Source: an uncultured Gemmatimonadales bacterium (GTDB taxonomy: Bacteria; Gemmatimonadota; Gemmatimonadetes; Gemmatimonadales; Gemmatimonadaceae). From it: a stretch of DNA of 64,000 bases. Under the pieces are notes generated by a model. That model was not told the origin of the DNA. It saw only the letters and a program-made list of their open reading frames with translations, and searched no databases. The position numbers and the translations under genes were made by a program. Positions 13,886 through 59,736 of the stretch are shown here, one piece after another. Numbering within the stretch: the first letter of the stretch is position 1; every line of letters begins with the position of its first letter. The stretch lies in contig CAWDVJ010000002.1 of the NCBI GenBank assembly GCA_963805725.1, positions 3,545 through 67,544 on the forward strand, written 5' to 3'.

Positions 13886-13890
13886 CGCGA

Positions 13891-29585: not shown

Positions 29586-29643
29586 TGGCCCCATTGAGCG
29601 ACGCTCAGCCGGCCGTCCTTCCTCTTTTCTGCGTCGCTCCTTT

Positions 29644-29674: not shown

Positions 29675-29678
29675 GCCG

Positions 29679-40371: not shown

Positions 40372-40388
40372 CGAAGACCGCACTCATT

Positions 40389-40495
40389 GGCCATGCGCAG
40401 AACCTACCCGTGCGGTGTCAGCCGAGCGTCAAGGCAGAAAGTAGAGAGGAGAAAGGAGACCGAGTAACGCGGCCCCGTGGCGCACACGCCATCCA
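40389..40495 (-). repeat. nested-hairpin repeat family, partial copy 4
   Basis: ggccatgcgcagaacctacccgtgcggtgtcagccgagcgtcaaggcagaaagtagagaggagaaaggagaccgagtaacgcggccccgtgg aligns with 56031-56125. Confidence 0.85.
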
Positions 40496-40504
40496 GGTCC
40501 GCCT

Positions 40505-40816
40505 CACGTTATCTGAGTTCCCCAACCGTCGTACTCGCAGTTGTAGTTCAATCCGTCTCGGATCATCGAGGCAACCCATCGTCAAGATCTCGGGCGACAC
40601 GGGCGTTGGTTGCGTGTGCCCTTCGACAACCCACTGTCCGTCTGGGCTAGCTGGGTCAGGCTTCACGTCGACGGCGTAGTCCGTCACGTGCGCTAGCAGC
40701 TTTTTCAATTCTTCTGCGGTTGTCTGCGTGCGCGCGTAGAAAGTGAATTCGAGGGTCAGTGGCGTCTGAGTCGTGACCCCTCGCGCGGTCAGGGCGGCCC
40801 AGGTCTGCTTGTTCAT
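40505..40816 (-). CDS. RraB-like (regulator of ribonuclease activity B family) small protein; 1 frame change
   Basis: MNKQTWAALTARGVTTQTPLTLEFTFYARTQTTAEELKKLL...DGQWVVEGHTQPTPVSPEIL, then in another frame RWVASMIRDGLNYNCEYDGWGTQIT-stop (YDGW end motif of the family). Frame change near 40575. Confidence 0.6.
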
Positions 40817-40829
40817 TGCTAGCTCGATG

Positions 40830-41524
40830 CGACAGCAACTCTCGGCGGCGGGCGTATTGCTTCGCAGCTTCGCCGCTGGCTGAACTTGTTGTGCCCGGCT
40901 GCGCTGCCTTCGCTGTGGGCGCGAGACGGAGAAGCGAAAAGCTTGTAACGCAGAGAGTAGGTCGGTTTCTCGCCCTGCAGCGCGGGTGATGATCATTACG
41001 ACGATGCCAGCATTGGGCCTCACCACGGTGCTCACCTCCGTTGTGAACAACGTGTGGGCCGTGTAGGCGCCTGAATGGGTCGCCGTTAGCGGCACTTCGC
41101 GTCCGAGCCAGCGCGCGGCGCAGCGCCGCGAGTGCCCAATGGGCTTTCCCATCTCCAGATACCCACGGCCGAACGCGAGGCCCTGAAGCGCCTGCCGCCC
41201 CAGCACTGTGACATAGGACGAATCCGGTCCGAACCAGGCCGGCTCCTTCGAGTTGGGCGACGAACTCTGAGTGGGTCGGAACCCCGTTGGCAGCGCGATG
41301 GTTCCGTCGAGTGAGTCCACATGCCACGGCTGGTCCGCAAGTCCGGGCGCAACGGTTGTGGGGAGCGGTGGTAGGCATGGCGGAAATGATCGGGCCACGC
41401 CGGTCCACTCCTCAGGCGTAATGATGTAAGCGGCGGAATCTGGCGCAGTCTGGCCTTTCGCCTGCATGGCAATCAGGGCCGAGATCGCTCCAGCGAGTCG
41501 CAGTCTTCTCAACTGTGTCGGCAC
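40830..41524 (-). CDS. hypothetical secreted protein
   Basis: Signal-like MPTQLRRLRLAGAISALIAMQAKGQ. No family recognised. The ORF track reads it in frame into the RraB-like gene, so the 3' end is uncertain. Confidence 0.5.
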
Positions 41525-41568
41525 AAGCGCTCACCGCGGGCTGGCAAAGAACATCGCTCAATCAGTGA

Positions 41569-41907
41569 TCAGGGAAGCCGGTTCGCCACGAAACGATACA
41601 AACGTACGATCCACGGCGGCATTCCAGCGTTGGACATTGAATCCACTAAGCGTCGTGCCGTTGCGCCCCGTCCCCACCATGGCGTTTTGAGCGCATCACG
41701 CTTCCTCGTCTCCCATGCTCGGCGTTGCTCCTCGTCGAAATGAGGCAGGAGTCGCACGAACGCAATCTCTTCTTCGACGCACCAATGCTCCATGCGCGGC
41801 AGCCTCCGCGCAGTGGCGGGTATCCCTCTAGTGGCAAATCGTGTGTGCGTCAGCTCGTGCACGATTGCGCTGGCTAGGCCAGCGTTGCTTTGTTGCTCAA
41901 GGGGCAC
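41569..41907 (-). CDS. small HExxH-motif protein (putative metallopeptidase-like), hypothetical
   Basis: GTG 41907, 9 nt after the cysK stop. LASAIVHELTHTRF, then CVEEEIAFVRLLPHFDEEQRRAWETRK. The long N-terminal part of ORF 41569..42114 overlaps cysK and is discounted. Confidence 0.4.
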   Translation of the reverse strand: MPLEQQSNAGLASAIVHELTHTRFATRGIPATARRLPRMEHWCVEEEIAFVRLLPHFDEEQRRAWETRKRDALKTPWWGRGATARRLVDSMSNAGMPPWIVRLYRFVANRLP

Positions 41908-41915
41908 TCGAGGCG

Positions 41916-42890
41916 TTACCCCTCGTTCTCGTATAGCGCCGTCGTCAGGTACCGGGCGCCGCTGTCGGGTGCGATGCACGCCACGCGGGCATCTGGGCCC
42001 AGTTCCCGAGCGACGTCGAGCGCAGCCCAGACGATAGCGCCGCTCGACATGCCGACGAAGAGCCCCTCCTCTTTCGCGAGCCGCCGAGCGATTGGAAAGG
42101 CGTCCTCCTCCCACGCCCGCACAATTCGATTGACGACCGAGCGGTCGAAGTTGGCTGGCACGAACCCCGGCCCCATGCCCTGAAACTGATGCTGGCCACG
42201 TGCGCCGCCCGAAAGCACGGGGGAGCGTGCCGGCTCGACGGCGACCACGAGGGTGTCGGGCCGCCGTTCCTTCAGGTACCGTCCGACCCCGCTTATCGTC
42301 CCGCCGGTGCCGGAGCCATAGACGAATGCGTCAATACGGCCGTTCATTCGCGCCCATAGTTCCGGCGCCGTGGTCTCGTAATGAATGCGCGGATTTGCGG
42401 GATTGCCGAACTGGTCGGGCATCCACGCGCCCGTTGCGTCGCGAATTCTCTCTGCCTCTTCGATCGCCGCCAGCATACGCCGCTCGGGATCCGTCGGCAC
42501 GATCTCGGCGCCGTAGGCCCGCACCGTGCGTTTTCGCTCGTCGCTCATTGACGACGGCATGGCGAGAATCAACCGATAACCCCGCGCCGCCGCGACTTGC
42601 GCCAGACCGATACCGGTGTTGCCTGACGTGGGCTCGACGATCAGCCCGCCGGGCCTCAGCACGCCGCGCACTTCGGCGTCGAGAATCATTCCAAGCGCCG
42701 TCCGATCCTTGATCGATCCACCGGGATTCAAGCCTTCGAGCTTGACCCAGATTTCGCCCATCTGCGGCTCGACGATGTGCCGGAGGCGCACCATTGGTGT
42801 ATGACCGATCGCATTGTCAATCCGCGACGATGCGTCGCGAGGCTCCACAAGCAGGGGCGCGATTGCGCTCATTACCCATTGAACCGGCAC
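41916..42890 (-). CDS. cysK: cysteine synthase A (O-acetylserine sulfhydrylase)
   Basis: GLNPGGSIKDRTALGMI (PLP Lys), EPTSGNTGIGLA, GTGGTISG. ATG 42872 is an alternative start. Confidence 0.92.
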   Translation of the reverse strand: MPVQWVMSAIAPLLVEPRDASSRIDNAIGHTPMVRLRHIVEPQMGEIWVKLEGLNPGGSIKDRTALGMILDAEVRGVLRPGGLIVEPTSGNTGIGLAQVAAARGYRLILAMPSSMSDERKRTVRAYGAEIVPTDPERRMLAAIEEAERIRDATGAWMPDQFGNPANPRIHYETTAPELWARMNGRIDAFVYGSGTGGTISGVGRYLKERRPDTLVVAVEPARSPVLSGGARGQHQFQGMGPGFVPANFDRSVVNRIVRAWEEDAFPIARRLAKEEGLFVGMSSGAIVWAALDVARELGPDARVACIAPDSGARYLTTALYENEG

Positions 42891-42999
42891 GCACGGCTTC
42901 GAGTTCCGCGATGGATCTGGGGCGGCGGGCCCCAGGGACGGCGGTCGAGTTTGCCGCGGGCGACTTCCCTGGAGATTGGCAAAGCACCTCTCCGCGGGC

Positions 43000-44208
43000 T
43001 CAGTTCGTTTCTAGGGCCTCCTTCCCCGGCAATTTCGGGAACGGCGCGTGCGGCTCGTCCTGATACCAGTAGGCCACCGAGGCAATGTCATCCCTCAGCG
43101 GCAGATATCCTCCTGTATCCCGCCAACCGAGTGCCTGTATGGTGACGCGCAGATCCGAATTGAAGCGAACGGGGTCGGCAATGTGCCAACGGTACAACCC
43201 AAACCGCTGCTGTGATTGATATAAACCGTCCGGCTTGATGACTTGCACGAGACCCGAGTACGGGCTCGTAAACTCCTCGTACTGCTTCGTCTCACTGTTC
43301 TCGAAGTCGTACGAACCGTTGAAGTAGTCCTCGGTGCCGGTCCCATTGATCGTTGGGAAGTTCTGGTCCCCGTCGATGTAGAACTTGATCTCGCCCTCGC
43401 CCCACCACCCATTGTTGTGCACGCCCCACGCCATGTAGGTGCCGACGTAGTGACCCTTGCCTTTGACTCCATCGAGGATCGTGTAGACCTGCTTGTACGG
43501 CAGCGGATTCACTCGGCGAAACTGCGCGTGGAAGTAGGCAGCGTCCGTGGGCACAGGTGCGAGTGCGTAGTCAATCTGATAGTACAGCTCCATGGGTTTA
43601 CTATCGAGATTCTCGATCGTGATTCTCGCCTTACGCCTGAACGGCAGCGGCCAATACGCGTTGAATGCGCTCCCCGGATTCACGCACACAGCCAGCGACG
43701 ACACCCGTGCGTACTTACCCCAGCCCATCGCGAAGAAGTCACCCACCGGGACCTCCACCGAGGGCTCGTGCTCGTCGTCCCAATACATCCGCAGAATCGA
43801 GAGGCGCCAATTCCCGGTTGGAGTCATCCAAATGTGTTGGATCGCCCCAGAGCCAGTGATCTCCGCGAGCGTGTACGTCGTGCCCGCCCCGATCTTGACG
43901 GACGGGCTGATCTTCCACCCCGGACCCAAGTCACGAGCCATGCTTGCGCCCGTCCCCTCGGTCGCCATGCCACCCTTGCCCTTCTCACCAGTCGGATTCT
44001 CCGGGCTGATGGAAAATGTCCGCGCAGTCGATAGGCGATACAGATTGCCGAGATGAGTATCGAGGCCGTCATACGAGCCATTCTGAGCCAAAACGGCGCG
44101 CGGCCCGCACACCAGGAATGCGGCGGCTACAAGTCTAATGGTTGACAGCACTGCGGCTCCCTCAATGTTTGGGTGCACCGAAACGACCGAGAATCGACGT
44201 TCAGACAT
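43000..44208 (-). CDS. DUF2961 / glycoside hydrolase family 172 protein, secreted
   Basis: 402 aa. ISPENPTGEKGKGG, IQHIWMT, LRMYWDDE, WWGEGEIKFYIDGD, GTGTEDYF. Confidence 0.85.
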   Translation of the reverse strand: MSERRFSVVSVHPNIEGAAVLSTIRLVAAAFLVCGPRAVLAQNGSYDGLDTHLGNLYRLSTARTFSISPENPTGEKGKGGMATEGTGASMARDLGPGWKISPSVKIGAGTTYTLAEITGSGAIQHIWMTPTGNWRLSILRMYWDDEHEPSVEVPVGDFFAMGWGKYARVSSLAVCVNPGSAFNAYWPLPFRRKARITIENLDSKPMELYYQIDYALAPVPTDAAYFHAQFRRVNPLPYKQVYTILDGVKGKGHYVGTYMAWGVHNNGWWGEGEIKFYIDGDQNFPTINGTGTEDYFNGSYDFENSETKQYEEFTSPYSGLVQVIKPDGLYQSQQRFGLYRWHIADPVRFNSDLRVTIQALGWRDTGGYLPLRDDIASVAYWYQDEPHAPFPKLPGKEALETN

Positions 44209-44353
44209 ATCAGGATCTGTTTAGTCAATTTCGCGAACTGTACTTCGCATTCGGGAAGGCGCGATGGGCGACGCTGTGACTACAACGACTCCGTGACGTG
44301 GGCGTGCCGCAAAAAAGAGCCGTCGGAAGTCAGACATCGGTAACCCGTCCCCG

Positions 44354-47189
44354 TTATCCGCGACGGTGTGTTGTGATGCCCAGCTCGACGCTGATCTCAG
44401 TCCCTGCCGTAAGAACCACGGGACTGCTGAACTCCACGTGCACATCGGCGCCATCGACCACAGCGGTGTGACCGGTGATCGGCCGTCCATTTGGGCCGGT
44501 CATTCGCGTCGTGGCGACGACTGAGCCCTGCGCGACGTTGACGATCAGCCGGCGGAATGGGAACCTCGCCATGTCGCGCGGCGACGCGGAACGTGACTGA
44601 CCCGTCGTCTGCCGTTCGGGTCAGAGTGCCCCAACCTGATCCGGCGGCAAAAAAGCAGCGGAAGTTGCCGGCATTGACCTTCGGGGCAAAGGTCAGCGTC
44701 TGGTCGATCGCCGAGTACCGGTAGCCAGCAAGCGCGGACAGGACGGACCAGCTTGCAAGCGCGCGGGCGTAGTGGTGGCCGCACTCGACCTCGTTCCACG
44801 GATTCCGGCGCGCGCCGTCGTAGCGGTCCACCACACCTTTGACGATGGCCAGCCCTTCCTCGACGAGACCCTCGTAGATCATGTGGGCGGCGACCTGGAA
44901 CTCGACGCCGGTCCATACTTCATCGGAGTACGGGAACGGCAGGGCGGGGCGACCGCCCTTGGGCCACGTGCAGAGGACGAGTCCCTTTTCGTCGTTGAGG
45001 GCGAAGATGCGCTGCGTGTTGGGGTGATCGTAGAAGCTGGTGCGGAAGTTGTAGCGGTAGATAGCCTGTAGCGCCTGGCGGATGCGTTCGTGCGACCACC
45101 CTGGATCCAGCCCTACGACCGTCGCCATCCACGCGCCAAGCAGTTGGTCGGAGAGACAGCCCTCGCCAAACTGATAGCGAACCTGCCCGTTCTGGATAGC
45201 CGACGCGTGCCAACTGGCGTCGGCGTACTTCGTCATGGGATGGATCTGGTCGCTTGCTGGCACCTTTTGGATGTAGAACTCGCCGTTCCACAGCTGCTCG
45301 AGATTGGCGACCCCGCGCTCGCGCACCTGCCGATACGTGGCGGCAGCATCGGCATCGCCCACTGCGGTCGCCATGAGCTCCGCTGCCCGCAGCGCGCCCT
45401 GATACAGGGTGCTCATCATCGAATTCGGGCCGTAGAACTCGACGTCGTACGTGTTGTGTTGCTCCCCTTCGAAGAGGCCGTCCCGGTCGGCATCCCAGTG
45501 CGTCCAGGCGAATTCGAGGGCGCGTTTGGCGGCGGGCCAGAGCTGCTTCAGGAGTTCGTCGTCGCCCGAGAGCTGCCACTCGCGATAGAGCTTGATAATC
45601 GTGCCCGTCTGGCCGTCAGCGGCGGGGCGGAAGTCCCACTGCGCCCGCCCAACTGGGATCAGTGTGCGGAAGGCCATGCTGTCGTCGGCGCGCATGTTGG
45701 ACAGGAAGTCGGTGCGGCGCATCGAGCGCTCCAGCTCGGGGTAGAGAGCGGCGAGCGCTTGCTCGTAGTTCCAGACGTGGGTGCAGTTCATCGGGCAGCA
45801 CCCGGCGTTGTCGTCGCACCCCTCGAAGGCGAAGAACTGCTTGCCCTCGAGCAGCATGCAGGTGTTGGTGCGGATGATGGCGGCCTGGCTGGATACGGCT
45901 TCCAGCACGTACCCGGGGAGCGTCGCGGAGTAGAACCCGTCGCTGAAATCTCGGGTCTTCTTCTCGAGCTCCGGCAGACGTGCGACGGTGTGACGTGCGA
46001 CCTGCCACGCGCTCTGGAATCGCGTGCCATAGTAGTTGCGAAGATGCTGTCCTTTGACCTCCTTCTGGTCGTTCCAGTAGTTCTCGCGGACCGGGAAGGA
46101 CCAGGCGAGGACGAACGTCACCGACTGTGATTGCCCTGGCGCGAGCTGCAGTCGCGGCGCGAGCGTCGCATACGTCGAGCGGCCGTCGGCAGACGGTGAC
46201 GGGGGCACGACGTCGTGCAGCGCCCCGCTCTGGGCGAACTCGTCGTACCATTTCTGGTATGCGTCCCACCAATCACCCACATCCGCCCACGCGGTCGTCG
46301 CGGTCACGTCTGGACTCGTCGTGATGAGCGCCATCGAGCCGCCGCCCACATCCTCGGGTCCGTACTTGGCTGACGTCATATCTAGCCCTTGTACCCGCAC
46401 ACCTTCGGCGTTTTCCGTTCGGAAGGTGTTCAGGTTCTGGCCGAATCCGGGGTGCTGCGGGCCTGCGAGGTCAGCCTTCCCGTCGTAGCCGACTGCGTTG
46501 AGCAACGAAAACGCCAGTGCCAGTTCGACCGGCTTCGCGCTGCGCGAGCGCACGTGGTAGCGAAGGATCGCCACCGGCAGGCTCGAGTCATCGACATCGA
46601 GTGGGACGAAGGGATTGAACGCGTCGAGTGAGAGCTCGACCGGCAGCGACTCGTCCTCGAACGCGATCGTCGCAAAGGGATAGGCACCGGTGAAGCGCGC
46701 GGCGCGGAACCGCGGCAACCCTTCGGCGGACTCCCGGTGTCCGCCCTCTTGGCCGCGGAAGGGAGCGGCGAGCGGGCCTTCGACTACTCGCACAGCGGAG
46801 TGAGCCCCTTCGCTGCGCACCCAGAGCGCGACGAAGCTGAACGGGAGGATCTTTCCCTTGCCAGGTCGGTTGAAGATCTCCCAGTCCCTGAGCTGACCGC
46901 GGCCGCCGAGCGACACGGTACCCGTGCCAATGCCACCTAGGGGGAAGGCAACCTCGCTGAGGTGGTCGCCGGTGAGAACGCGCGGCTTCCGCGTCTGGTA
47001 CAGATCCTGTGGAGAGCAGGGGATGATGGATCCGGCCGCCGAACGAAACGCGTTCGGCTCCCGAGGCGCCTGCGCCTCGAGCGCTTGCGCGAGGGTCGAC
47101 GCGCCAATGGCGGCCGAGGACGTGGAGACGAGAAAGTCTCGACGATTGATGTTCTTGTCGACGGGGCTATCAGAGTCGGTCGGCATCAT
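44354..47189 (-). CDS. GH116 family (GBA2-type beta-glucosidase/glucosylceramidase-like), Tat signal; 1 frame change
   Basis: NRRDFLVSTSSAAIGAS signal. GGIGTGTVSLGGRGQLRDWEIFNRPGK N-domain. The last ~70 aa (FRRLIVNVAQGS...ISVELGITTHRRG-stop) are in the frame of 44354..44572, after an apparent extra C in gaggttcccattcc at ~44565. Confidence 0.85.
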
Positions 47190-48367: not shown

Positions 48368-48572
48368 CGGCTCAGTTCTGCAAGGCGGGACCACTATGCG
48401 TTCGCCATCGTGAGGCTGAACAGACATTCGCAGGGGCGGTCCACGAAAGCCGACGTGCCGTCGAGCAGTTGATGACGGCTTGAGGGCGGCTCCGCGTTGA
48501 CAGTCGCGGCCGGGCGGTCTTCGGATAACTCGTGGTCCGGAAATCGCTCCGCTCTATCGGCCGTGTGATCGC

Positions 48573-48605
48573 GAAGACGAGGAGTTTCTCGAACGCAAGT
48601 GGCAT
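48573..48605 (-). pseudogene. 11-codon stub of a four-helix-bundle (23S rRNA IVS-type) protein gene
   Basis: MPLAFEKLLVF matches the N-terminus of the stub at 56037. Similarity stops after it. Confidence 0.55.
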
Positions 48606-48632
48606 TCGCCGAATCTCGGCCCGTGCCTCACC

Positions 48633-48790
48633 GAGCGTCAATGCAGAAAGTAGAAAGGAGAAAGTAGTCCGAGTAGCACGGCCCCGAGGCGCTCACTGCC
48701 ATCGGGGCCGTTGGTTGCTGTGCGTCTACTTTCTACTTTCTGTTTCGCTACTCTCTATTTTTGGCCGCTCCGCGGCCAAAAATGGGCCTG
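48633..48790 (-). repeat. nested-hairpin repeat family, copy 1
   Basis: agcgtcaatgcagaaagtagaaaggagaaagtag...ACGGCCCCGA-14 nt-TCGGGGCCGT...gtctactttctactttctgtttcgctactctctaTTTTTGGCCGCtccGCGGCCAAAAAtgggcctg. Confidence 0.9.
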
Positions 48791-48851
48791 CGTAATGACC
48801 TGCTCTTCCTGACCGACCGCGACTGGTCGCACGTCGCCGCGCGATGCTCAC

Positions 48852-50792
48852 CTACTTGATGCACAGCACCCCGCGATAAATCTCGCTTTGTGATGGCGAG
48901 CGGGTAGTCATCGGCACCAGTGTATACCCGGGATGCGGGTCGAGGGCCAGGGTGACCGACACCGGGCGGAGGACCTCGTGGTGAACCACCGTGAAGACGA
49001 CCCCGTCGCCTGGGTGATGAGCGCTCAGCGTATGCTCAATGCCGGACCGGTCGAGAGCGTGGTCGTCCAGCGCGACCACAATGTCGCCGCGATCGAGACC
49101 GTCTCGCTCCGCTGGACTCCCAGGGATGATGTTGCTGACGACCGTCTGCCCATCGCGCATCGTTGCCAGCACAAGCCCAGACCAGCCCCCAGACGAGGAG
49201 AGCCGGTTCACGTCGATCCCGGCGTACCCGAAATCGCGCTCGTACGGCAGAGGATCCTTGCCGAAAAGGTAGCGGCGGAAAAAGTCGCTCATGTCTGTAC
49301 CGGCGACCTCGGACGCGACGCGGACCACGTCCTTCTCCTCGAACCCGGGCTTGGGCAGCGCGTAGCCCTCGTACATCGCGCGCATCCAATCGTCCAGCGA
49401 CTTCTGGTTGTTGGTGTGCTGGCGAATCTCGAGGTCCAGCAGCACACCCAGCGCCTCCCCTGCGTCGTAGTACGAGTAGTTGGTATTGATGATGTTGGTG
49501 GGGATGAGATTGGTCACGCCTTGGAGCGCGCTGCCGCCAATGTACCCGAACCACGTATCCCAGCTGGCATCGGCAATGCTGCGTTCGACGCGCCCGGGCA
49601 TCGCATCCACTGTGCTGATCAGTCGACTCACATGGCCCAGGTACCGCTGCGGCGTCCAAAAGCCGGCGCGGAGCGCCGCGACCAATGTGTAGTACTGCGT
49701 CAAACCTTCGGCGATCCACAGGGATGGCGTATGGACCATCTGGGCGTAGTCGAACGGGCCCAGGGACCGGGGCCGGAGTCGTTTCACGTTCCAGGCATGG
49801 AACAGCTCATGCACCGCCGTGAGCACCTTGCCGTCGTACACGTTGATCATGTCACCGCGCGTCGTCGGCGTGCTGTCTCCCCAGTCGCTCGTGTAGTTGA
49901 GCTTCGTGGAATTCAGGTGCTCGGTGCCGCCGGCGAGACCGGTTTCATGCACGACGTGGATGAGGAACCAGTACTCGGCAAACGGAGCGGGGCGCGGGCC
50001 TCCGACCGCCGGCGCCAGGATGGGGACGAGTCCATCTTCGACAATGTGCTGCACGTCCCTGGTGAACTGCGTGTAGTCTTGCTTGTCCATCTCGTCATGG
50101 ACGACGAAGTGGTACGTCGTGCCGAGGACGGTGACGTCTTTCTCCGTGAACGGCGCGATCTCGATCGGACAGTCGGCAAACCAGTCGTAATCGGCGGCGC
50201 GGAATCCCGTCGGCCCGGTCTTCTCGAGTCCCGTGGCTGTCTTCCAGTCCGCGGGGAGCCGTGAGGTATCGATCGTGAGGGTGATCGGCCGCTCCTTGGC
50301 GCCGACTTGATACATCCAGAGGTCCGGGCCGTTTATGGCCACGTGGCGATCGTCGTATTGGACCGTGGCGAGCCAATTCGCATACACCTGATATCGAATG
50401 ATCGCCGCGGTCGCGCCGTTGAGGTCTATTTCCCAGCTTTGGGCATCGGTCTTGTGCCAGGAGAGCGCGCGGCCCGCGCTATCGGTAGCGCGAAAGTCCT
50501 GGACTTCCGCGGCGAAATTGCGCACCACGTAGGAGCCGGGAGACCAGACGGCCATCGAGAAGAGCACCACCCTCCCGGCGAGTCCGCTGGTGTGAATGGT
50601 CACGTCCAAGAGGTGTGTGTTCCATCGCTCGAAACCGAGCTCGTAGCGGAGCGGCGTCGCCGCGGAGCAGATGGCAGCCGCAAAGGGGATGAGCGTGACA
50701 CCCCGGACGATCCTAGCGACATAGCGCATCATCCCTCCACCCATTCTGGTCGAGCGAAACGCAGAACAATGGATCCCCATCCTCGAATCCAC
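48852..50792 (-). CDS. M61 family glycyl aminopeptidase with PDZ domain (paralog)
   Basis: HELFHAWNVKRLRP. PDZ-like GLDRGDIVVALDD. The likely true start is MMRYVARIV at 50732. Confidence 0.9.
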   Translation of the reverse strand: MDSRMGIHCSAFRSTRMGGGMMRYVARIVRGVTLIPFAAAICSAATPLRYELGFERWNTHLLDVTIHTSGLAGRVVLFSMAVWSPGSYVVRNFAAEVQDFRATDSAGRALSWHKTDAQSWEIDLNGATAAIIRYQVYANWLATVQYDDRHVAINGPDLWMYQVGAKERPITLTIDTSRLPADWKTATGLEKTGPTGFRAADYDWFADCPIEIAPFTEKDVTVLGTTYHFVVHDEMDKQDYTQFTRDVQHIVEDGLVPILAPAVGGPRPAPFAEYWFLIHVVHETGLAGGTEHLNSTKLNYTSDWGDSTPTTRGDMINVYDGKVLTAVHELFHAWNVKRLRPRSLGPFDYAQMVHTPSLWIAEGLTQYYTLVAALRAGFWTPQRYLGHVSRLISTVDAMPGRVERSIADASWDTWFGYIGGSALQGVTNLIPTNIINTNYSYYDAGEALGVLLDLEIRQHTNNQKSLDDWMRAMYEGYALPKPGFEEKDVVRVASEVAGTDMSDFFRRYLFGKDPLPYERDFGYAGIDVNRLSSSGGWSGLVLATMRDGQTVVSNIIPGSPAERDGLDRGDIVVALDDHALDRSGIEHTLSAHHPGDGVVFTVVHHEVLRPVSVTLALDPHPGYTLVPMTTRSPSQSEIYRGVLCIK

Positions 50793-50799
50793 AAGCCAA

Positions 50800-51072
50800 T
50801 GCGGCTTCGGCTACACGGCGACCATCAAGCAGACCATCGCCACTCTCGATCCCACCGTGCCGATCTCGGACGTCAAGACGGATGGCGGCGCGCGTGAACG
50901 AGTCGATCGGTACGACACGGTTCTCGACCCGACTTGCCTCGATCTTTGCGGTAGTCGCGCCGGGACTGGTGCGGTTGGGGTGCACAGCGTGCTGGGGTAC
51001 ATTGTGAGCCGGCGGCGGCGAGAAATCGCGGTACGGGTTGCGCTCGGACGCGAATCCGCATTCGACCGGCTA
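50800..51072 (+). pseudogene. 3' remnant of an FtsX/MacB-type ABC transporter permease gene
   Basis: TIKQTIATLDPTVPISDVKT, then (frame-shifted) AARVNESIGTTRFSTRLASIFAVV, then AVGVHSVLGYIVSRRRREIAVRVALG. This is the last extracytoplasmic loop and TM helices of FtsX-domain permeases. No upstream part exists, and it is cut by the 51070 gene. Confidence 0.6.
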
Positions 51073-51870: not shown

Positions 51871-51943
51871 AGGGCTTATCAGAAGAAGACAGTCCGCGAG
51901 CGTGCGGTCCGCGCATCATCCCCCATGCTCCACATCCATGCCA

Positions 51944-53446: not shown

Positions 53447-53725
53447 GGGTAATCCCTCGCTATTTGTAATCCGCTGGAAGATCCCGCGAACTGCCGACAG
53501 AATGTGCAGTAGGCATTGTCACCTCATTCAGATATCCCGATCGGCAGCACAAAGAGTACCGCCGAAAGGATTCCCGACAAATGCAATGTCTTGGGCAACG
53601 TCGGACTTCGTTCTATCGGGTCCAGGCTACTTCAGCTCGACAGTGAGAATGAGACGTCGGCGTTGCCGCCGCGCAGGGCTCGCGCGAACTCGACGGTCCA
53701 CGCTTATCGTGCGGACCGTGGCGAT

Positions 53726-54562
53726 TTATTGCACTGCCTGCACCATTGCCACAATTTCGCCAACGACGAGGTCGGGTCTGTCGCGCATGATGTAGTGACC
53801 GCTGCCGGTGGCGAACACGCCTCGCCGCCCCACACCAGCTTTGTCGAACAGTTTGTGTGCGGCAATCCACCTGGTGTCGTCCGGCGGCGGCATCGGGGGC
53901 TTCTCAGCCACGATATCCGTGATGCGGAGACCAGCCGGCCAATTCACGCCGCGCATGGTGCGTACAGTCTCCGGGAAGCCATTCAGCACTTTCTCCATCG
54001 TGGCAAATGTCTTCGGATCCTCCTTCCTGAGCTGCACGCGCTGCGCTGCCCGCCCTGCCATCAACCGGTCGACGACGCTGTCCGTAAAAAATGACGCGAG
54101 GTTCGGGTCGATCAGCACGACGCCCTTTACGACGGTGGGATTGCGCGCCGCAAACAAGGCTGCGAGAAAGCCCCCGTACGAGTGCGCGACGAGGATCACG
54201 TCGCCATCGATCTGCAGTTGCTTCAACCCTCGTTCAAGAGCTTCGACCTCCTGGGTAATGCTGTACGGCCCCGGGTCGGCGTCGCTCTGTCCGAGCCCTG
54301 CCCGGTCGTATGTGATCATGCGCGCTCCGGTTCTGCGTCTCACTTCGCGCGCGGTATTGCTCCATACCGAAGAGTTATCTCCACCCCCAGCCTCGAATAC
54401 GATCGTCGGCGGTTTGCCGGTCGCGACATGGAACTGGAGGCGATACCCGCCAACATCGACTTTCTGGTCTCGAAATGCGACCGAGTCTTGTCCCTGCGCA
54501 ACGCTTACCAACAAAAGCAGCAACGACACGCCTGCAACACGACCGATTGTTTTCATGCCCAT
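53726..54562 (-). CDS. alpha/beta hydrolase, secreted
   Basis: Signal MGMKTIGRVAGVSLLLLLVSVAQG, TIVFEAGGGDNSSVW, elbow AHSYGG. Confidence 0.88.
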   Translation of the reverse strand: MGMKTIGRVAGVSLLLLLVSVAQGQDSVAFRDQKVDVGGYRLQFHVATGKPPTIVFEAGGGDNSSVWSNTAREVRRRTGARMITYDRAGLGQSDADPGPYSITQEVEALERGLKQLQIDGDVILVAHSYGGFLAALFAARNPTVVKGVVLIDPNLASFFTDSVVDRLMAGRAAQRVQLRKEDPKTFATMEKVLNGFPETVRTMRGVNWPAGLRITDIVAEKPPMPPPDDTRWIAAHKLFDKAGVGRRGVFATGSGHYIMRDRPDLVVGEIVAMVQAVQ

Positions 54563-54838
54563 GCTGCTCTCTGGTCAGGGTGACGGGGACGGGAGCGCGG
54601 CTCGCGGGGGTGAACTGCTACACCGGGCGGGAGACGGGCGCAAGAGCCGGCCACGATCTCAGGCTAAACGTACATCAACGTTGCAGAGATCGCAGCTCCC
54701 ACGCGTACGAGCCACGCGCGCGCTTCAGTGCCAGAGAGCGGACTCTCTCGACAGACGAAAACGGCGCGAGATGGAGTAAGGCGTTGAGGGTCGCCACTGT
54801 CCTTCGACAGCGGCTTCGTGTTTCCCGATCTCTAAGGA

Positions 54839-55780
54839 CTACGGCGCGTTCACCTTGTTCGCGAACCACTGAAGGATCGTGGTTTCGAGCGCAATCCGGT
54901 GATCGGAAAAGGGGTGGTCAGTGTCGAGTGACCGGCGTGTGACGTCCGGCGCGCGGACCTGCGTTAGCGCGTCCATGAGCTCTGCGCCCTGATCGTCAGG
55001 AGTGTCATGCGTCGCGGTCACGACGAGGATCGGCACGTGTCGCAGCGCAGCCGCGCCGCTCTCCAAATGCCAGTCATATCCCTCCGCGACAATCTCTTTG
55101 GCGAGATCCACGTCCGTGTACCCGCCGAGTCGGCCGTCGACGTCATCGAACGCGGCGTGTGCCGCGGCCGGTAGTTTGTCGGACGCTACCATGAACATCG
55201 GCACGTCCGGCGCTGGATTCCACGGCGCCAGAAGAACGAGTCCCGCGAGGTGTGGATGTGTCGCCGCCACCCGAACCGCCACGAATCCGCCGTAGCTGTG
55301 TCCCAGGACAATGAGGCGAGTCGTATCAATGCGAAACCTCGCGACGACGGTCGGATCTCGGAGAAAGGCCAGCGCCGCGACCCCATCGGCCACACCCCGC
55401 GCGAGCGTAAAAGCGCCGGGACTCCCCCAGGATCCCCGGTAGTGAAACGACAGCACGTTGTAGCCGGCCCGGCGGAGCACCTGCGCCAGATCGAGGTTCT
55501 CCTCGTTGCCGGGGAGCCCGTGGAGATTGAGGACTGTCGGATGCGGCCCGACACCGGCCGCAGCGAGCATCACCCCATTGAGTCGCACGTCTCCGCTCGG
55601 GATCCAGACCGCCTCGTTGTGCATCGGGTGCGCACTGTCACGTGGCGGATCTCGGACAATCGCATTCGGCATGGTCGTCCCCGGCGTCTGCGCAATTGCG
55701 CACGGCAAAGCGCACGCGCTCGCCAGAATGCACGCCACCGCGAGAGTGTTGGGGCGCGCGAGCCCGAATAGCCGAGTCAT
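54839..55780 (-). CDS. alpha/beta hydrolase (dienelactone hydrolase/S9-like), secreted
   Basis: Start ATG 55780 (MTRLFGLARPNTLAVACILASACALPCAIAQ). LNLHGLPGNEENL, elbow GHSYGG. The upstream part of ORF 54839..56068 reads through the repeat and is discounted. Confidence 0.85.
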   Translation of the reverse strand: MTRLFGLARPNTLAVACILASACALPCAIAQTPGTTMPNAIVRDPPRDSAHPMHNEAVWIPSGDVRLNGVMLAAAGVGPHPTVLNLHGLPGNEENLDLAQVLRRAGYNVLSFHYRGSWGSPGAFTLARGVADGVAALAFLRDPTVVARFRIDTTRLIVLGHSYGGFVAVRVAATHPHLAGLVLLAPWNPAPDVPMFMVASDKLPAAAHAAFDDVDGRLGGYTDVDLAKEIVAEGYDWHLESGAAALRHVPILVVTATHDTPDDQGAELMDALTQVRAPDVTRRSLDTDHPFSDHRIALETTILQWFANKVNAP

Positions 55781-55932
55781 CCGGAAGACATTCGTGCTCG
55801 CGAGAGCTCCTGTCAACAGCGTGGCCCCGGCCCCACGACGGCTCGGCGTGTGGAATGGCGGGTTCGTATGAGAGTCCATCGCGCGCTTTGGGACGACGGT
55901 CGCCATGTCGCTCTTGGTCGCGTTCGCGCGCG

Positions 55933-56037
55933 GAGGAAAAAGTAGCCCCGGGGAAAGCGCCGGCTTGCCACACATACCGTGTCGGCCAGTTCCACACTCT
56001 TCTGGTAAACCAGAAGCTTCTCGAACGCGAAGGCCAT
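55933..56037 (-). pseudogene. 35-codon stub of a four-helix-bundle (23S rRNA IVS-type) protein gene
   Basis: MAFAFEKLLVYQKSVELADTVCVASRRFPRGYFFL is the typical N-terminus of the family. It then degenerates into an Arg-rich read-through. Confidence 0.65.
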
Positions 56038-56195
56038 GCGCAGAACCTACCCATGCGGCGTCAGCCAAGCGTCAGGGCAGAAAGTAGAAAGTAGACCGAG
56101 TGGCACGGCCCCGTGACGCTCACCGCCATCGCGACCGTTGTTGCTTCTCGTCTACTTTCTACTTTCTGTTTCGCTACTCTCTATTTTTGGCCGCC
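56038..56195 (-). repeat. nested-hairpin repeat family, copy 2 (best outer stem)
   Basis: CAGAAAGTAGAAAGTAGACCGAG...CTCGTCTACTTTCTACTTTCTG (about 20-bp stem) flanks cacggccccgtgacgctcaccgccatcgcgaccg. It ends in ...ctctatttttggccgc, with the terminator palindrome truncated. Confidence 0.9.
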
Positions 56196-56290
56196 GCCGC
56201 TTGCTTTGACGGCCCACCGCCGAGGCGACCGGTGAAGCAGGGCCCCCCCAGGACATCGCGACCCTTTGTGGCCCATTGTCCTCCTAACAC

Positions 56291-57250
56291 TCAGCGGTCG
56301 GCCACGATGCCGCTCGCAGTCGCCTCAGTGGCCAACTGCTCGTAGGTCGACTTGAGCTGATCAATGCCTTGCTCGTGCGTGTGGAGGTTGGCGCCGCCGG
56401 CATAGGCCGCTCGGCCGAAACCCGATAATTGGCGCACCTCGCTCGTCCATCGTGGCCATGAAGGCAGTGAGCGAAGGCGACCACCATACGCGCGGTCGAA
56501 CTCCTCAATGAGGTAGTGGGCGGATCGATCGGTCGTTGCCGGACCATGCTGGCCATCGATCGTTGTCACCATGAACGGAACGAGCATGTCCTTGGTGATC
56601 TCGGCGACGGCCGGTACGGGTGGCGGCGGGCGCTTCCCGAAGCCGAGTCGTGAGACTTCCCAATCGTGGACTCCGACCACGCCGACAGCAGGGTCGGCCG
56701 GCACCCAGCCGCCCTGTTCCGAGTCATAGATCTCGAGCCAGCGGTGATCGTTGTGCTCGAGACCGAAAACAGAGGCACGCGGGCCCAGCTCTTTGATCTT
56801 CTCCACCGCCCGAGCCTGCCGGTCCTCACTGCGTGGCTGGACATTGATTTCGGCGATCCACCGGGACTGCATGCCGGCTGCCTTTACCATCTCGGCAAGG
56901 ACCGCCGCCAAGTCCGCGCAGTTGCCAGCACGGCGACGCACGATCTGCTCGGGGGTGCGCTGCCGATAGTCAGTCCACGTCCACTCGAGGTTCGACCCGA
57001 TCCAGGTCACCAGTCGGCGAGTCCGGTCGCTCGGCGTACCAGCGTGACCTGCGACCCGCTGCGCGATCGCGGCAAGGGAAGAGTCGGCAGCCGAGCTCTG
57101 GGCGCTCGTGATTTCGGGGGCGAGAACACTTCCGATCAGGCCAGCCAAGAGCACAACGCGTGGCATGCACGCCTCGAGGAGCGGTGTTAGGGACGCCATC
57201 GGACGATTAGGTCGTGGCTGCCAGTTGACCGCCAATACGGGTCGAGGCAC
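56291..57250 (-). CDS. transglutaminase-like cysteine protease domain protein, secreted
   Basis: RRRAGNCADLAAVLAEMV (Cys), EHNDHRWLEIYD (His), WVPADP (Asp). Alternative starts at 57199 and 57166. Confidence 0.8.
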   Translation of the reverse strand: MPRPVLAVNWQPRPNRPMASLTPLLEACMPRVVLLAGLIGSVLAPEITSAQSSAADSSLAAIAQRVAGHAGTPSDRTRRLVTWIGSNLEWTWTDYRQRTPEQIVRRRAGNCADLAAVLAEMVKAAGMQSRWIAEINVQPRSEDRQARAVEKIKELGPRASVFGLEHNDHRWLEIYDSEQGGWVPADPAVGVVGVHDWEVSRLGFGKRPPPPVPAVAEITKDMLVPFMVTTIDGQHGPATTDRSAHYLIEEFDRAYGGRLRSLPSWPRWTSEVRQLSGFGRAAYAGGANLHTHEQGIDQLKSTYEQLATEATASGIVADR

Positions 57251-57308
57251 GATCTGGTTTCACCGCGAAAGCGATTTGTCCACCTATCAATGGCGTCGAT
57301 TCTACCGC

Positions 57309-57348
57309 GGAAAGGAGCAAGTAGAAATGAGACCGAGTAGCACGGCCC
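57309..57348 (-). repeat. nested-hairpin repeat family, short partial copy 5
   Basis: ggaaaggagcaagtagaaatgagaccgagtagcacggccc aligns with the left arm plus the start of the inner hairpin of copies 1-4. Confidence 0.7.
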
Positions 57349-57594
57349 GGAAACCGCCTAGGCGTTTGGGCTGAGTCGCGCTGGGCGATTTGCCTTGGCG
57401 CCGCTAATCTCGCCGCGCCTTCTCGAGCGCACGCATTGCGGCCTCTGCCTGCAGGTAAGGGCGAGCGAACCATCTGTTTATTGAAGGAAGCAGCGAGTAC
57501 CGGTCGTCTGTCGATTTCCCCGACCCTCGTTCGACGCCACTATACAGGGGTACTTCTGATCCCCGATTTTCGACCCTAGCTGAGGATCCGGACC

Positions 57595-58029
57595 ATGCGG
57601 TTCATGGCAATCCATTTTTTCACGAAGGCCGGCGAGGCCGGCCCGATGCCGACGACCGAGCAAATGCAGACAGGGGTGAACTTCCACGAAGAGCAGGTGA
57701 AAGCCCGAGTGCTGTTGCAGGCCGAGGGGCTGCACCCGAGCTCGAAGGGTGCGCGTGTGCGGTTCTCGGGGGAGAAGCGGACGGTCACCGACGGGCCGTT
57801 CACCGAGGCGAAGGAGCTCATCGGCGGGTTCTGGATTATTGAGGCCAAGTCGATGGAGGATGCGATCGAGTGGGTCAAGCGCATTCCCAACCTGTGGCCG
57901 GAGGAGACCGAGATCGAGGTCCGGCAGGTCGCCGAGGCCGAGGACGTGGAAGCGATGACGCCCGAACTTGAAGCGCAGATAGCGAGGCTGCACGGCGAGG
58001 CGCCGCTCGGTAGGGTGACGATACCCTGA
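57595..58029 (+). CDS. YciI family (DGPF-motif) protein
   Basis: 144 aa. VTDGPFTEAKELIGGFWIIEAKSMEDAIEWVKR. Confidence 0.85.
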   Translation: MRFMAIHFFTKAGEAGPMPTTEQMQTGVNFHEEQVKARVLLQAEGLHPSSKGARVRFSGEKRTVTDGPFTEAKELIGGFWIIEAKSMEDAIEWVKRIPNLWPEETEIEVRQVAEAEDVEAMTPELEAQIARLHGEAPLGRVTIP

Positions 58030-58113
58030 GCCTAAGCCAAAATCACGGGACCAATCTGCGGGGCATCTCTACACGGCCGGGTACAATCGCGCGTACACGG
58101 CGACGGAGGATGT

Positions 58114-58400
58114 TTGGGTGGCGACGTTGCCGGTGGGGCAGCGGATGGATGGCCGAGGGTGGCGGCGAAGGGGGCGAAGGTTCGGATCAACGGAACATTG
58201 TATCCGGTGATCGCATCCGTGTCGGCGAGCCACACGATCGGGGAGCTGGGGAGTGATGCCGCGAGGCAGGGCGCGGGCGGGCCACCGGTCAAGGCCGGAA
58301 ACGTGGCGACGATATTCGACGCGACCGACGGGTCGCGCCCCGAAGATGTCTCGGTGGCGTGCGGCGCATCTGTCTACGACATTGCGATGCGTTCTCGGCG
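58114..58400 (+). pseudogene. alanine racemase-type C-terminal domain fragment
   Basis: GAKVRINGTLYPVIASVSASHTIGELG...VKAGNVATIFDATDGSRPEDVSVACGASVYDIAM parallels v.i.G...pivGrvsMD...vdl....GdeV.l.G....e.A...gTi.YEi. No N-terminal PLP barrel is present. Confidence 0.45.
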
Positions 58401-58523
58401 CGCTGTTGCCGAGGCGGGTAATGTAAGGCGACGCGACGCCCGCTGTCGAGAATCCGGTGGTTGGTTCGACGTAATAGGGCATAGGCGACAATGGCCTTTC
58501 CCGTTACCGCGAGGATCCCGACA

Positions 58524-59435
58524 ATGATGTCCACTGCAAGATTGATAGCCACGTCCGCAGCAGGTCTGACCCTGGCGTCGGCGGGCCCAGCCACCCTTCA
58601 CACACCCGCCCCGTCGAGTGCTGAATCGGGCTACGCGCCGGTGAACGGTCTTCAGCTCTACTACGAGATTCGGGGGACGGGGGCCCCAGTGGTCGTCCTG
58701 CACGGCGGCCTTAGCAACACGGAGTTGATTGCGGGCATGATCACGCAGCTCGCGCGCACGCAGCGCGTGATCGCGGTTGACCTTCAGGGGCACGGTCGCA
58801 CGGCGGATATTGATCGTCCGTTCACTTGCGAGGCGATGGCGGACGACATCGCTGGGCTGCTCCGCTATCTCAAGATCCCGAAGGCGGACATCGTGGGATA
58901 CTCCCTCGGAGGGTCCGTCGCGCTGCGTACGGCGATTCAACACCCCGACATGATCGGCAAGCTCGTAGTGGTCTCGGCGGTGGTTCAGCCATCGGGCTGG
59001 TACCCGGAGCTGCACGCCGCGATGGAGCAGGTTGGCGCCGGCATGGCCGAGGCGATGAAGCCGAGCCCCGCGTACCAGACGTACGCCCGCATCGCTCCGC
59101 GTCCTGAAGATTGGCCGGTGTTACTCGACAAGACGGGGGCGCTGCTGAGGCAGGATTTCGATTGGACGCACGAGGTAAAATCGATCGCGGCGCCGACGTT
59201 GCTGGTCTTTGGCGACGCCAATGCGATACGGCCGGAGCACATGGTGGAGTTCTTCCATCTGCTCGGTGGAGGCACCAAAGATGGCGGTCTGGACGGGTCC
59301 GGAATGTCAAAGGCTCGGCTGGCGATGCTGCCCGGCACCACCCACTACACCATCTTTGATTCCCCGCTCCTCCCTCCGTTGATCGTGCGCTTTCTCGCCA
59401 GCGATGACTCGCGCATCCGACCCAACACGAACTAG
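58524..59435 (+). CDS. alpha/beta hydrolase, secreted
   Basis: MMSTARLIATSAAGLTLASAGPA signal, VVVLHGGL, VDLQGHGRT, elbow GYSLGG. Confidence 0.88.
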   Translation: MMSTARLIATSAAGLTLASAGPATLHTPAPSSAESGYAPVNGLQLYYEIRGTGAPVVVLHGGLSNTELIAGMITQLARTQRVIAVDLQGHGRTADIDRPFTCEAMADDIAGLLRYLKIPKADIVGYSLGGSVALRTAIQHPDMIGKLVVVSAVVQPSGWYPELHAAMEQVGAGMAEAMKPSPAYQTYARIAPRPEDWPVLLDKTGALLRQDFDWTHEVKSIAAPTLLVFGDANAIRPEHMVEFFHLLGGGTKDGGLDGSGMSKARLAMLPGTTHYTIFDSPLLPPLIVRFLASDDSRIRPNTN

Positions 59436-59530
59436 CGTCCTTCGTTTTTCACGTCGGCCAACACTGCGCGATCGTTGAACATTGCGCGAGTCGCCATTCG
59501 AAACCGCATCAGCCCCGTGACCGCTCGGCG

Positions 59531-59693
59531 CGACGCTTGAGGGCCGCGAGAGCGTGATGGAAAGGAGAAGGAGAAGATCGACCAGTAGCGCGGCCCCGTG
59601 GCGACTTATACCATCGGGGCCGTTGTTGCTTCTCGTCTACTTTCTACTTTCTGTGTCGCTACTCTCTATTTTTGGCCGCTCCGCGGCCAAAAA
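59531..59693 (-). repeat. nested-hairpin repeat family, copy 3
   Basis: ggaaaggagaaggagaagatcgaccagtagcgCGGCCCCGtggcgacttataccatCGGGGCCGttgttgcttctcgtctactttctactttctgtgtcgctactctctaTTTTTGGCCGCtccGCGGCCAAAAA. Confidence 0.9.
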
Positions 59694-59736
59694 TGGGCCT
59701 GGGTAGAGTTGAACTACCGACCTCACGCTTATCAGG
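59694..59736 (-). other. tRNA-Ile(GAU) 3' half (anticodon loop to discriminator); not a functional tRNA
   Basis: The minus strand reads CCTGATAAGCGTGAGGTCGGTAGTTCAACTCTACCCAGGCCCA: anticodon loop CTGATAA, variable loop AGGTC, T arm GGTAG-TTCAACT-CTACC, acceptor CAGGCCC plus A. The upstream 35 nt lack a D arm and the 5' acceptor GGGCCTG. Confidence 0.75.

Follow-up and report, generated by a model that had tools for sequence, protein, structure and literature searches.

Truncated copies of a tRNA-linked hairpin and four-helix-bundle gene unit in a Gemmatimonadales genome

Proteins of the PF05635 family ('23S rRNA intervening-sequence protein'), which have the fold of Avd, the accessory protein of diversity-generating retroelements (DGRs), are very widespread, and to our knowledge no function has been assigned to them outside DGRs. 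In the intervening sequences (IVSs) of the 23S rRNA genes of Coxiella and Leptospira, an S23p/PF05635 open reading frame (ORF) lies inside a stable-RNA gene and RNase III cuts at a stem, which is 28 bp long in Coxiella (PMC4990558). The 23S IVSs are sporadic and horizontally spread, their function is unknown and they are suspected to be selfish elements (PMC4990558). The present work concerns a family of hairpin repeats in a 64,000-nt stretch of DNA (the window) from an uncultured Gemmatimonadales bacterium (GenBank assembly GCA_963805725.1, contig CAWDVJ010000002.1, positions 3,545 to 67,544). The copies carry the first codons of PF05635 four-helix-bundle (4HB) genes, and judged by its likeness to them the 23S rRNA IVS appears to be the closest known parallel. 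The window has a GC content of 63.6% and is approximately 97% identical, over the shared segments, to the metagenome-assembled genome (MAG) MFD00731.bin.2.174.

Tandem (accreted) islands and cis-mobilisable elements at tRNA genes are bounded by direct repeats of the tRNA 3' segment. Where displaced tRNA 3' segments share a boundary in the anticodon loop or the T arm, this is classically taken as the mark of tyrosine-integrase insertion into tRNA genes, and Williams is said to have described, in 2002, anticodon-loop and T-loop sublocations of islands at tRNA genes. Transcription units which join tRNAs to a distal protein gene are exemplified by the thrU-tyrU-glyT-thrT-tufB and tyrT-tpr operons of E. 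coli.

A reading of the window made from the sequence alone (the sequence-only reading) had described five copies of a nested-hairpin repeat carrying 5' stubs of 4HB genes. A profile hidden Markov model of the unit recovered all five, every one on the minus strand (E = 2e-69 to 2e-7), and added a sixth, degenerate copy (E = 1.5e-9) beyond the range that had been covered. The five copies stand, the total does not: the window contains six co-oriented copies, not five. The 19-mer of the arm, GTCTACTTTCTACTTTCTG, occurs seven times in the window with up to 3 mismatches, compared with 0.00 occurrences expected from 100 shuffles. Rfam gave no match to the element at gathering thresholds, and at E <= 5 only chance matches to microRNAs or to repeats of the clustered regularly interspaced short palindromic type.

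Read along the minus strand, the unit consists of the 3' part of tRNA-Ile(GAT), a palindrome adjoining the tRNA end (hp1), TAGAG followed by a (GAAAGTA)n purine arm, an inner hairpin rich in GC, an arm of pyrimidine heptads, 0-60 nt of leader and a PF05635 4HB gene. The tRNA had been missed by the sequence-only reading; a tRNA-Ile 3' fragment heads copy 5, and intact units lie directly 3' of tRNA genes. Over 41 nt, the 43-nt fragment shares 88-90% identity with tRNA-Ile genes annotated in E. coli. Similarity among the window copies reaches beyond the hairpin in both directions, taking in the tRNA fragment, the leader and the 4HB codons, and it is cut off at an internal point which is different in each copy. 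The copies are decayed, truncated relics of one composite unit. The stubs are the 5' ends of 4HB genes whose bodies have been deleted: over 35 aa the stub in copy 3 shares 74% identity with the intact PF05635 protein P0011, and the remaining stubs agree with the sequence-only reading. At the position of copy 4 the related MAG has a complete unit including the tRNA fragment (locus L089; L numbers designate loci throughout), and copy 4 is a deletion remnant of the unit kept there.

What the relics derive from is seen in relatives that retain the gene. An intact 4HB gene in L040, a locus of the MAG, matches PF05635 with E = 3.7e-25, and its protein has more than 3000 homologs, many of which, from Phycisphaerae and Planctomycetia, are 71-82% identical. 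Each genomic context inspected presented the same series on one strand: tRNA, hp1, TAGAG with the purine arm, a variable GC-rich core, the pyrimidine arm and the ATG. The tRNAs at the head were Glu-CTC, Pro-GGG, Pro-CGG, Pro-TGG and Arg-CCT; in L110 there was only a tRNA 3' fragment.

An unbiased scan of metagenomes at the protein level gave 80 loci encoding close 4HB relatives (69-100% identity), and 63 of these had at least 300 nt of upstream sequence. The purine arm was present upstream of the 4HB gene in 62 of the 63 loci, the pyrimidine arm also in 62, and both arms in 61. In 40 of these loci the ATG was preceded, at a distance of 122-304 nt, by the end of an intact tRNA gene on the same strand, against a chance expectation that we estimate at well under 1%. 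By type, the upstream tRNAs were Pro (30), Arg (4), Gln (3), Ala (3), Glu (1) and His (1). Where no intact tRNA was present (23 loci), tRNA 3' ends or degenerate remnants mostly took its place, and one of these loci had another 4HB gene there. The arms are preserved nearly base for base in a candidate-division genome of 48% GC (L054), in which the exact 19-mer adjoins a 4HB start or remnant.

In its intact form the unit regularly flanks tRNA genes on their 3' side (those for Pro, Arg, Glu, Gln, Ala and His; in the window Ile), and the highly conserved 4HB family found with it crosses phyla, occurring in Gemmatimonadota, Planctomycetota and others. Since the arms are conserved upstream of intact 4HB genes, the repeat is the spacer that ordinarily separates a tRNA gene from its 4HB gene, and the proposal that it was derived from an IVS-protein gene has to be abandoned. 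The same conserved spacer takes the place of another proposal, a mobilised promoter serving the GTPase, hydrolase and transglutaminase genes of the window, for which no support was obtained. The observation that a leader may be kept after its gene is gone was confirmed at another site. In unit A of L007 (1-130) the long hairpin and leader are joined straight to sequence that in L102 follows the stop codon (TGTAGCGCTGGCCCGT), so that between the two loci (L102 5856-6400, from MFD05377.bin.1.62) the 4HB coding sequence has been lost, or gained, almost precisely.

The arrangement was not described in the papers searched on PF05635, on Gemmatimonadetes repetitive extragenic palindromic (REP) sequences and on four-helix bundles with tRNA, nor is it in Rfam, and the cross-phylum unit of tRNA, hairpins and 4HB gene is apparently undescribed. 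It means that a highly conserved PF05635 subfamily is nearly always encoded next to the 3' end of a tRNA gene, from which a conserved spacer with two hairpins separates it, and that the family gains a second, independent link to stable RNA besides the 23S IVS. A DGR context of the Avd kind was not indicated, as neither the window nor the genes called in the inspected loci yielded a reverse transcriptase domain.

Several minor observations concern the same unit. In L154 (about 600-721) two 4HB genes stand in tandem with only hp1 and the purine/pyrimidine hairpin between them, a 4HB gene occupying the place of the tRNA. L197 carries a 92%-identical 4HB copy on a contig that begins inside the tRNA-Ile 3' end (1-11) and offers no upstream context. 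Assemblies break at the unit, most contigs bearing these 4HB genes being approximately 1 kb long, and the unit is probably present in multiple copies in many genomes. For annotation, the unit explains a class of repeats that breaks metagenome assemblies.

The first of the two hairpins, hp1, has in the window the form T5-GGCCGC-nnn-GCGGCC-A5, which reads alike on both strands, with the T-run before the stem and the A-run after it. These runs merely lengthen the stem. The palindrome had been described as terminator-like and independent of orientation. With the T5-stem-A5 order on both strands it is not terminator-shaped: there is no U-tract after the stem in either direction and hp1 was not called by the terminator scan. 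In some relatives hp1 does have an A-run-stem-U-run form, unlike that of the window. Among 62 metagenomic loci, hp1 lay mostly exactly 10 nt ahead of the purine arm and formed a perfect stem of at least 7 bp in 55, with 55 different stem sequences; the stem often took in the discriminator or CCA of the tRNA itself. hp1 is clearly conserved as a structure, with strong covariation.

The long purine/pyrimidine stem behaves differently, and the check for covarying stems that had been proposed earlier succeeded for hp1 and gave a weak result for the long stem. The nested hairpin as such folds as predicted: copies 2, 3 and 5 gave -63.2, -58.8 and -46.4 kcal/mol, corresponding to z = -5.9, -6.3 and -3.0. 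Within the Gemmatimonadales lineage 94.9% of the alignment cells of the long stem were paired, and two pairs switched from UA to GC in four sequences, which may be one clade. The covariation score was 0.109 compared with 0.077 in shuffled alignments, a value attained by 4 of 500 shuffles. The duplex energy of an arm with its own partner was -31.3 kcal/mol versus -30.6 ± 5.7 kcal/mol with the arms of other loci, and the best 22-nt Watson-Crick window scored 17.56 with the own and 17.39 with other partners (permutation p = 0.077). Pairing of the long stem is plausible from its sequence and robust by design, with weak covariation support. Its arms are conserved as sequence, and sequence-specific recognition of the heptads may be the alternative.

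The pyrimidine arm ends 0-60 nt ahead of the ATG. Such variation in distance leaves no room for a universal promoter between the arm and the start codon, and the arm lies probably within the 5' untranslated region. For the same reason a sigma-70 promoter suggested by TAGAAT/TATAAT, which some Planctomycete copies carry 6 nt upstream of the ATG, was rejected as a general feature. The pyrimidine arm (..GGTCTCCTTTCTCCTTTC..) was noted to resemble the anti-Shine-Dalgarno end of 16S rRNA, CCUCCUUUCU, in copies 2 and 3 and in L102 (5873-5960), and the purine arm holds Shine-Dalgarno-like AGGAG/GGAGA; the likeness of both arms may be a coincidence of base composition.

With the 23S rRNA IVS the unit shares the PF05635 protein, the stable-RNA transcription unit, the long inverted-repeat stem and a sporadic, horizontal distribution. 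It differs in that the units follow tRNA genes or their fragments (no rRNA family was matched in the window by Rfam) and in that both arms lie upstream of the ATG, none of them enclosing the ORF, with no complementary arm seen after the stop codon. Its arms are moreover purine/pyrimidine heptads conserved in sequence across phyla, forming a potential stem at which RNase III might cut. The unit is not itself an IVS, since it has another host gene and its ORF is located beyond the stem. With the tRNA-protein operons of E. coli it has in common a protein gene directly downstream of a tRNA on the same strand, which requires processing to part the tRNA from the mRNA; unlike those operons, where the purine/pyrimidine hairpin has no counterpart, co-transcription here is an inference.

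If the tRNA and the 4HB gene were co-transcribed, tRNA 3' processing and/or an RNase III cut in the 25-35 bp stem would free the 4HB mRNA, and the structured 5' end might then shield this mRNA from decay. The hairpin would in that case serve tRNA-mRNA processing or mRNA stabilisation, and the window copies would be dead remains of this arrangement. An RNase III-type processing structure, one of the functions suggested from the start, remains the most plausible.

The related MAG has five units with the same layout as in the window (in L033, twice in L040, in L075 and in L089). All five, together with window copy 5, start at one and the same anticodon-loop position of the tRNA, and their upstream flanks differ. 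The 43-mer is exactly conserved in window copy 5, L033 and both L040 units, and nearly identical in L075 and L089. One L040 unit, 5208-5591(-), is followed by an intact 4HB gene. The DNA between units is accessory: a 2.6-kb block of L040 carries, besides an intact 4HB gene, the pairs RelE/HTH and DUF433/DUF5615, and L033 encodes a DUF497-like toxin, identified by eye from its translation. In the window a DinB_2 gene on the opposite strand adjoins copy 1. Comparison of the window with the 97%-identical MAG located the differences at the units; copy 5 and L033 show an internal difference of approximately 90 nt within the unit.

The layout of copy 5 beyond the tRNA fragment, a palindrome followed by a tandem direct repeat, recurs in L033, in both L040 units and in L089. 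In the MAG units the palindrome GCCGGCAAGTTGCCGGC stands exactly 21 nt before the tRNA fragment, and the tandem 10-mer beyond it has its own sequence in each unit and a constant layout. The palindrome and direct repeats may be arm sites of a recombinase.

A parallel array was found in a Planctomycete (L113, contig CAYOBS010000009.1, 2381-5086), in which the 3' 26 nt of an intact tRNA-Arg(CCG) recur twice, displaced to 3625 and 4545. Cassettes encoding DUF4160/DUF2442 and MazE/PIN separate these tRNA-Arg sequences, the last fragment is followed by a long hairpin and a 4HB gene, and no integrase was present within 15 kb. A gene-less element of approximately 170 nt consisting of the hairpin only (L065, about 6850-7110, in MFD00731.bin.2.174) has tRNA-Pro(TGG) on one side and a 28-nt repeat on the other. 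This direct repeat equals the 3' end of tRNA-Pro(TGG) and has the appearance of an att-like duplication.

These arrays resemble islands at tRNA genes in having co-oriented tRNA 3' repeats whose start is in the anticodon loop (for Ile) or close to the T arm (for Arg and Pro), in carrying accessory and toxin-antitoxin cargo between the repeats, and in that relatives differ at the repeats. Unlike such islands, the blocks are tiny (0.9-8 kb) and none was seen with an integrase; the repeat runs 200-300 nt beyond the tRNA, through hp1, the long hairpin and the start of the 4HB gene; and the head tRNA was not observed in the window or the MAG tiles, whereas the analogous L113 array has one. Integron cassette arrays are similar in their small co-oriented cassettes (here toxin-antitoxin genes, DinB_2, YCII and alpha/beta hydrolases) with imperfect hairpin repeats between them. 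They are dissimilar in that here a tRNA fragment lies inside the repeat and some blocks are multi-gene operons. Inspection by eye, without an attC model search, revealed no R''/L''/L'/R' boxes or GTTRRRY core, and no IntI or other integrase match was obtained in the window. Loci of tRNA-Ile and tRNA-Arg with displaced 3' fragments and tiny toxin-antitoxin cassettes, at which no integrase was found, show island accretion of an unusual kind, in soil phyla that have been little studied.

The explanation proposed, in which we place about even confidence, is that the window copies are decayed tRNA-linked units, that the array arose by insertion at tRNA-Ile followed by deletion, and that the intact unit is co-transcribed and processed at its hairpin. 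Blocks of DNA would have been inserted repeatedly, by site-specific recombination, into the anticodon loop of tRNA-Ile. Each block would supply a new tRNA 3' half with its own hp1, long hairpin and 4HB gene, and would shift the old 3' half with its unit downstream. The outcome would be a co-oriented array of fragments with units, separated by cargo such as toxin-antitoxin pairs, hydrolases and the operon of glycoside hydrolases GH116/GH172. Later deletions would have taken 4HB bodies and other unit parts, which would account for the abrupt end of similarity at a different point in each copy.

A number of results weigh against this explanation. Copy 5 is the sole window copy with a full tRNA fragment, and ARAGORN detected no intact tRNA of any kind in the window and no intact tRNA-Ile in the MAG tiles, so that the head of the array was not seen. 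No integrase, transposase or REP-associated tyrosine transposase (RAYT) was present among approximately 60 scanned ORFs of the window, and no recombinase domain in the scanned genes of L033, L040, L075 and L007. At 61 loci with an intact tRNA and unit, none had a second repeat of the tRNA 3' end 0.6-10 kb downstream. Copy 6 directly follows the stop codon of an M61 peptidase paralog (29679-31646) and copy 2 sits downstream of the other M61 peptidase gene (48852-50792), which points to plain duplication for this pair; copy 6, at least, may have originated in that way. As to processing, the arms pair no better within a locus than between loci, so pairing of the long stem at the RNA level is not demonstrated. 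The possibility that the basic unit is itself a small, freshly integrated element was considered separately and rejected (0 of 61 loci with the downstream tRNA repeat); the unit is stable.

An alternative that we regard as unlikely is a self-contained, non-autonomous element of the type of a miniature inverted-repeat transposable element (MITE) or a REP doublet forming a hairpin (REPIN), moved by an enzyme acting in trans, the window copies being independent insertions. It draws on the hairpin-only relatives of the unit. A scan of 185,579 species genomes with the arm 19-mer gave at least 91 tiles, in accordance with the earlier view of a non-coding, hairpin-forming repeat family with further copies genome-wide. 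Among the matches listed nearly all were in Gemmatimonadales MAGs, with at least 28, 33, 19, 6 and 1 tiles in five genomes, the first three of these being Gemmatimonadales MAGs, and single ones were in Planctomycetota, Acidobacteriota and the candidate division CSSED10-310. The typical hairpin-only member is symmetric, consisting of a GC hairpin, GAGAGAGTAGAA, the arm, a core of 9-258 nt, the inverted arm and a GC hairpin; the upstream GC hairpin was present in 85 of 95 instances and the partner arm in 57 of 95. Such high-copy, intergenic inverted doublets with long hairpins and GTAG-containing arms, long stable at orthologous sites, do look like REPINs. An orthologous site with and without a purine-rich element (L009 versus L084) is also what mobility would produce, and members are enriched beside tRNA genes, 9 of 101 arm matches (8 elements) lying within 250 nt of one.

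What speaks against independent insertions of a defined element is that the window copies share sequence past the hairpin and are truncated internally at differing points. In addition, 46 of the 47 symmetric hairpin-only members lacked direct repeats of at least 10 nt at their flanks, shorter duplications being beyond this test, and no transposase or RAYT was detected among the scanned ORFs of the window. Members are kept at orthologous sites in genomes whose flanking genes are 75-90% identical, which indicates that they are old and stable. The arms differ from REPs and REPINs in detail, being heptad purine tracts of 19-35 nt with separate GC hairpins in place of a short palindrome preceded by a single GTAG. 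No Y1_Tnp match was obtained among the scanned window ORFs and the associated gene is the 4HB gene, without known catalytic activity. As in MITEs, inverted arms are present; no related autonomous transposon with the same ends was seen in the window or the loci inspected. The MITE-like origin put forward by the sequence-only reading is weak on these grounds. The window itself has no hairpin-only elements besides its six 4HB-type copies. A role of the hairpin-only elements as simple terminators was rejected, as no orientation bias was seen (convergent 18, tandem 33, divergent 13 flanking gene pairs, rough calls from a crude gene caller based on GC at third codon positions). Another class of repeats, GTAGGGGCGACGCaTGCGTCGCCCC, which looks like classic REPs, was noticed in L035, L037, L070, L078, L080 and L086, often in or beside heptad-arm elements.

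Still less likely in our estimate is ordinary segmental duplication with unequal crossing-over of one truncated locus of tRNA-Ile, unit and 4HB gene, followed by divergence and deletion without any site-specific recombination. It would explain the two copies just downstream of M61 paralogs, it has a parallel in several further paralog pairs of the window, it fits the similarity that runs upstream of the tRNA fragment over the palindrome and the direct repeats, and it accords with the finding of no integrase among the genes scanned. It does not easily produce the mosaic observed: next to an identical or near-identical 43-mer, the 21-nt spacer and the direct repeats are wholly different in sequence and the same in length and layout. 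The cargo between units is unrelated from one unit to the next and rich in toxin-antitoxin modules, and the tRNA-Arg array of L113, in another phylum, has cassettes without a long hairpin and 4HB gene.

A broader reading, to which we give a slim chance, regards the 4HB protein and the heptad hairpin as a two-part selfish system of stable-RNA genes. The hairpin with hp1 would be the cis site and a 4HB pentamer the trans-acting binder, at tRNA 3' flanks as well as in 23S IVSs; the gene-less hairpin copies, dozens in each Gemmatimonadales genome, would have been generated by the system as REPINs are by RAYTs, and the tRNA-fragment arrays would be its footprints. If so, the 4HB pentamer would direct, for example, processing, copying or recombination. 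Finally, cis-regulatory leaders, terminators or insulators kept for the neighbouring operons (GTPase-GH116-GH172, hydrolase, transglutaminase) were suggested by very stable structures and by three copies lying 60-250 nt upstream of minus-strand genes, and are very improbable: these genes are mutually unrelated and truncation differs in each copy, the promoter scan revealed no sigma-70-type site within any copy, the terminator scan called just short inner-hairpin matches (copies 1, 3 and 4) with a region-wide count not above that of shuffles, no U-tract lies behind the hp1 stem, in relatives this sequence stands ahead of a 4HB gene at 61 of 63 loci, and copy 4 is what deletion left of the full unit in the 97%-identical MAG.

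Table 1. Positions of the unit copies, their parts and the DNA between them in the window
Feature	Position	Strand	Remarks
Copy 1, partial	40386-40500	-	3' half of inner hairpin, pyrimidine arm, leader, ATGGCC only; E = 1e-23
Copy 2	48569-48798	-	nearly whole unit; profile E = 2e-69
Copy 2, tRNA remnant	48783-48790	-	final 8 nt of tRNA, CAGGCCCA
Copy 2, hp1	48758-48782		
Copy 2, purine arm	48724-48757		
Copy 2, inner GC hairpin	48678-48711		
Copy 2, pyrimidine arm	48643-48669		
Copy 2, leader	48606-48642		
Copy 2, 4HB stub	48605-48573		11 codons
Copy 3	55933-56197	-	profile match 56000-56197
Copy 3, hp1	56184-56194		3' half only
Copy 3, purine arm	56150-56183		
Copy 3, inner hairpin	56104-56137		
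Copy 3, pyrimidine arm	56078-56096		
Copy 3, leader	56038-56077		
Copy 3, 4HB stub	56037-55933		35 codons
Copy 4, fragment	57290-57348	-	part of inner hairpin and pyrimidine arm
Copy 5, profile match	59525-59737	-	
Copy 5, long hairpin	59531-59668	-	no 4HB start after it
Copy 5, purine-heptad arm	59635-59668		
Copy 5, inner GC hairpin	59590-59623		
Copy 5, pyrimidine arm	about 59545-59585		degenerate
Copy 5, hp1	59669-59693		T5-GGCCGC-TCC-GCGGCC-A5, adjoins tRNA 3' end
tRNA-Ile(GAT) 3' fragment, 43 nt	59694-59736	-	anticodon loop to discriminator base; heads copy 5; ...CCTGATAAGCGTGAGGTCGGTAGTTCAACTCTACCCAGGCCCA
Conserved flank beyond tRNA fragment	59738-59861	.	palindrome and tandem direct repeat
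Palindrome GCCGGCAACTTGCCGGC	59758-59774	.	far side of tRNA fragment
Tandem 10-nt direct repeat	59840-59861		AATTGTCCCC-GG-AATTGTCCCC
Copy 6, degenerate	29616-29677	-	hp1-like ATTGTGGCCCGC..GCGGGCCACAAT, TAGAAAGGAGCGA purine arm, trace of inner hairpin
Inter-unit block			ORF unmatched in Pfam, PALP, DUF2961 (GH172 in the sequence-only reading), GH116, second unmatched ORF, cobW
Inter-unit block			M61 peptidase, alpha/beta hydrolases, PrpD
Inter-unit block			transglutaminase-like gene
Inter-unit block			YCII, alpha/beta hydrolase

The window region is rich in duplicated accessory genes. A 160-nt tandem duplication (36980-37139 and 37196-37355, 96% identical, with a period of 216 nt) lies within a 727-aa ORF, 35173-37356(-), that has no Pfam match. 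DUF305 paralogs are located at 6348-6995 and 32240-32860, and a tandem pair of Ferritin_2 genes at 27779-28726 and 28737-29585. An inverted similarity of 153 nt (4835-4987 and 18889-19041) involves two ORFs without Pfam matches. At 12479-14928(+) a LigD primase-polymerase is followed by an ATP-dependent DNA ligase, the two forming a non-homologous end-joining module.

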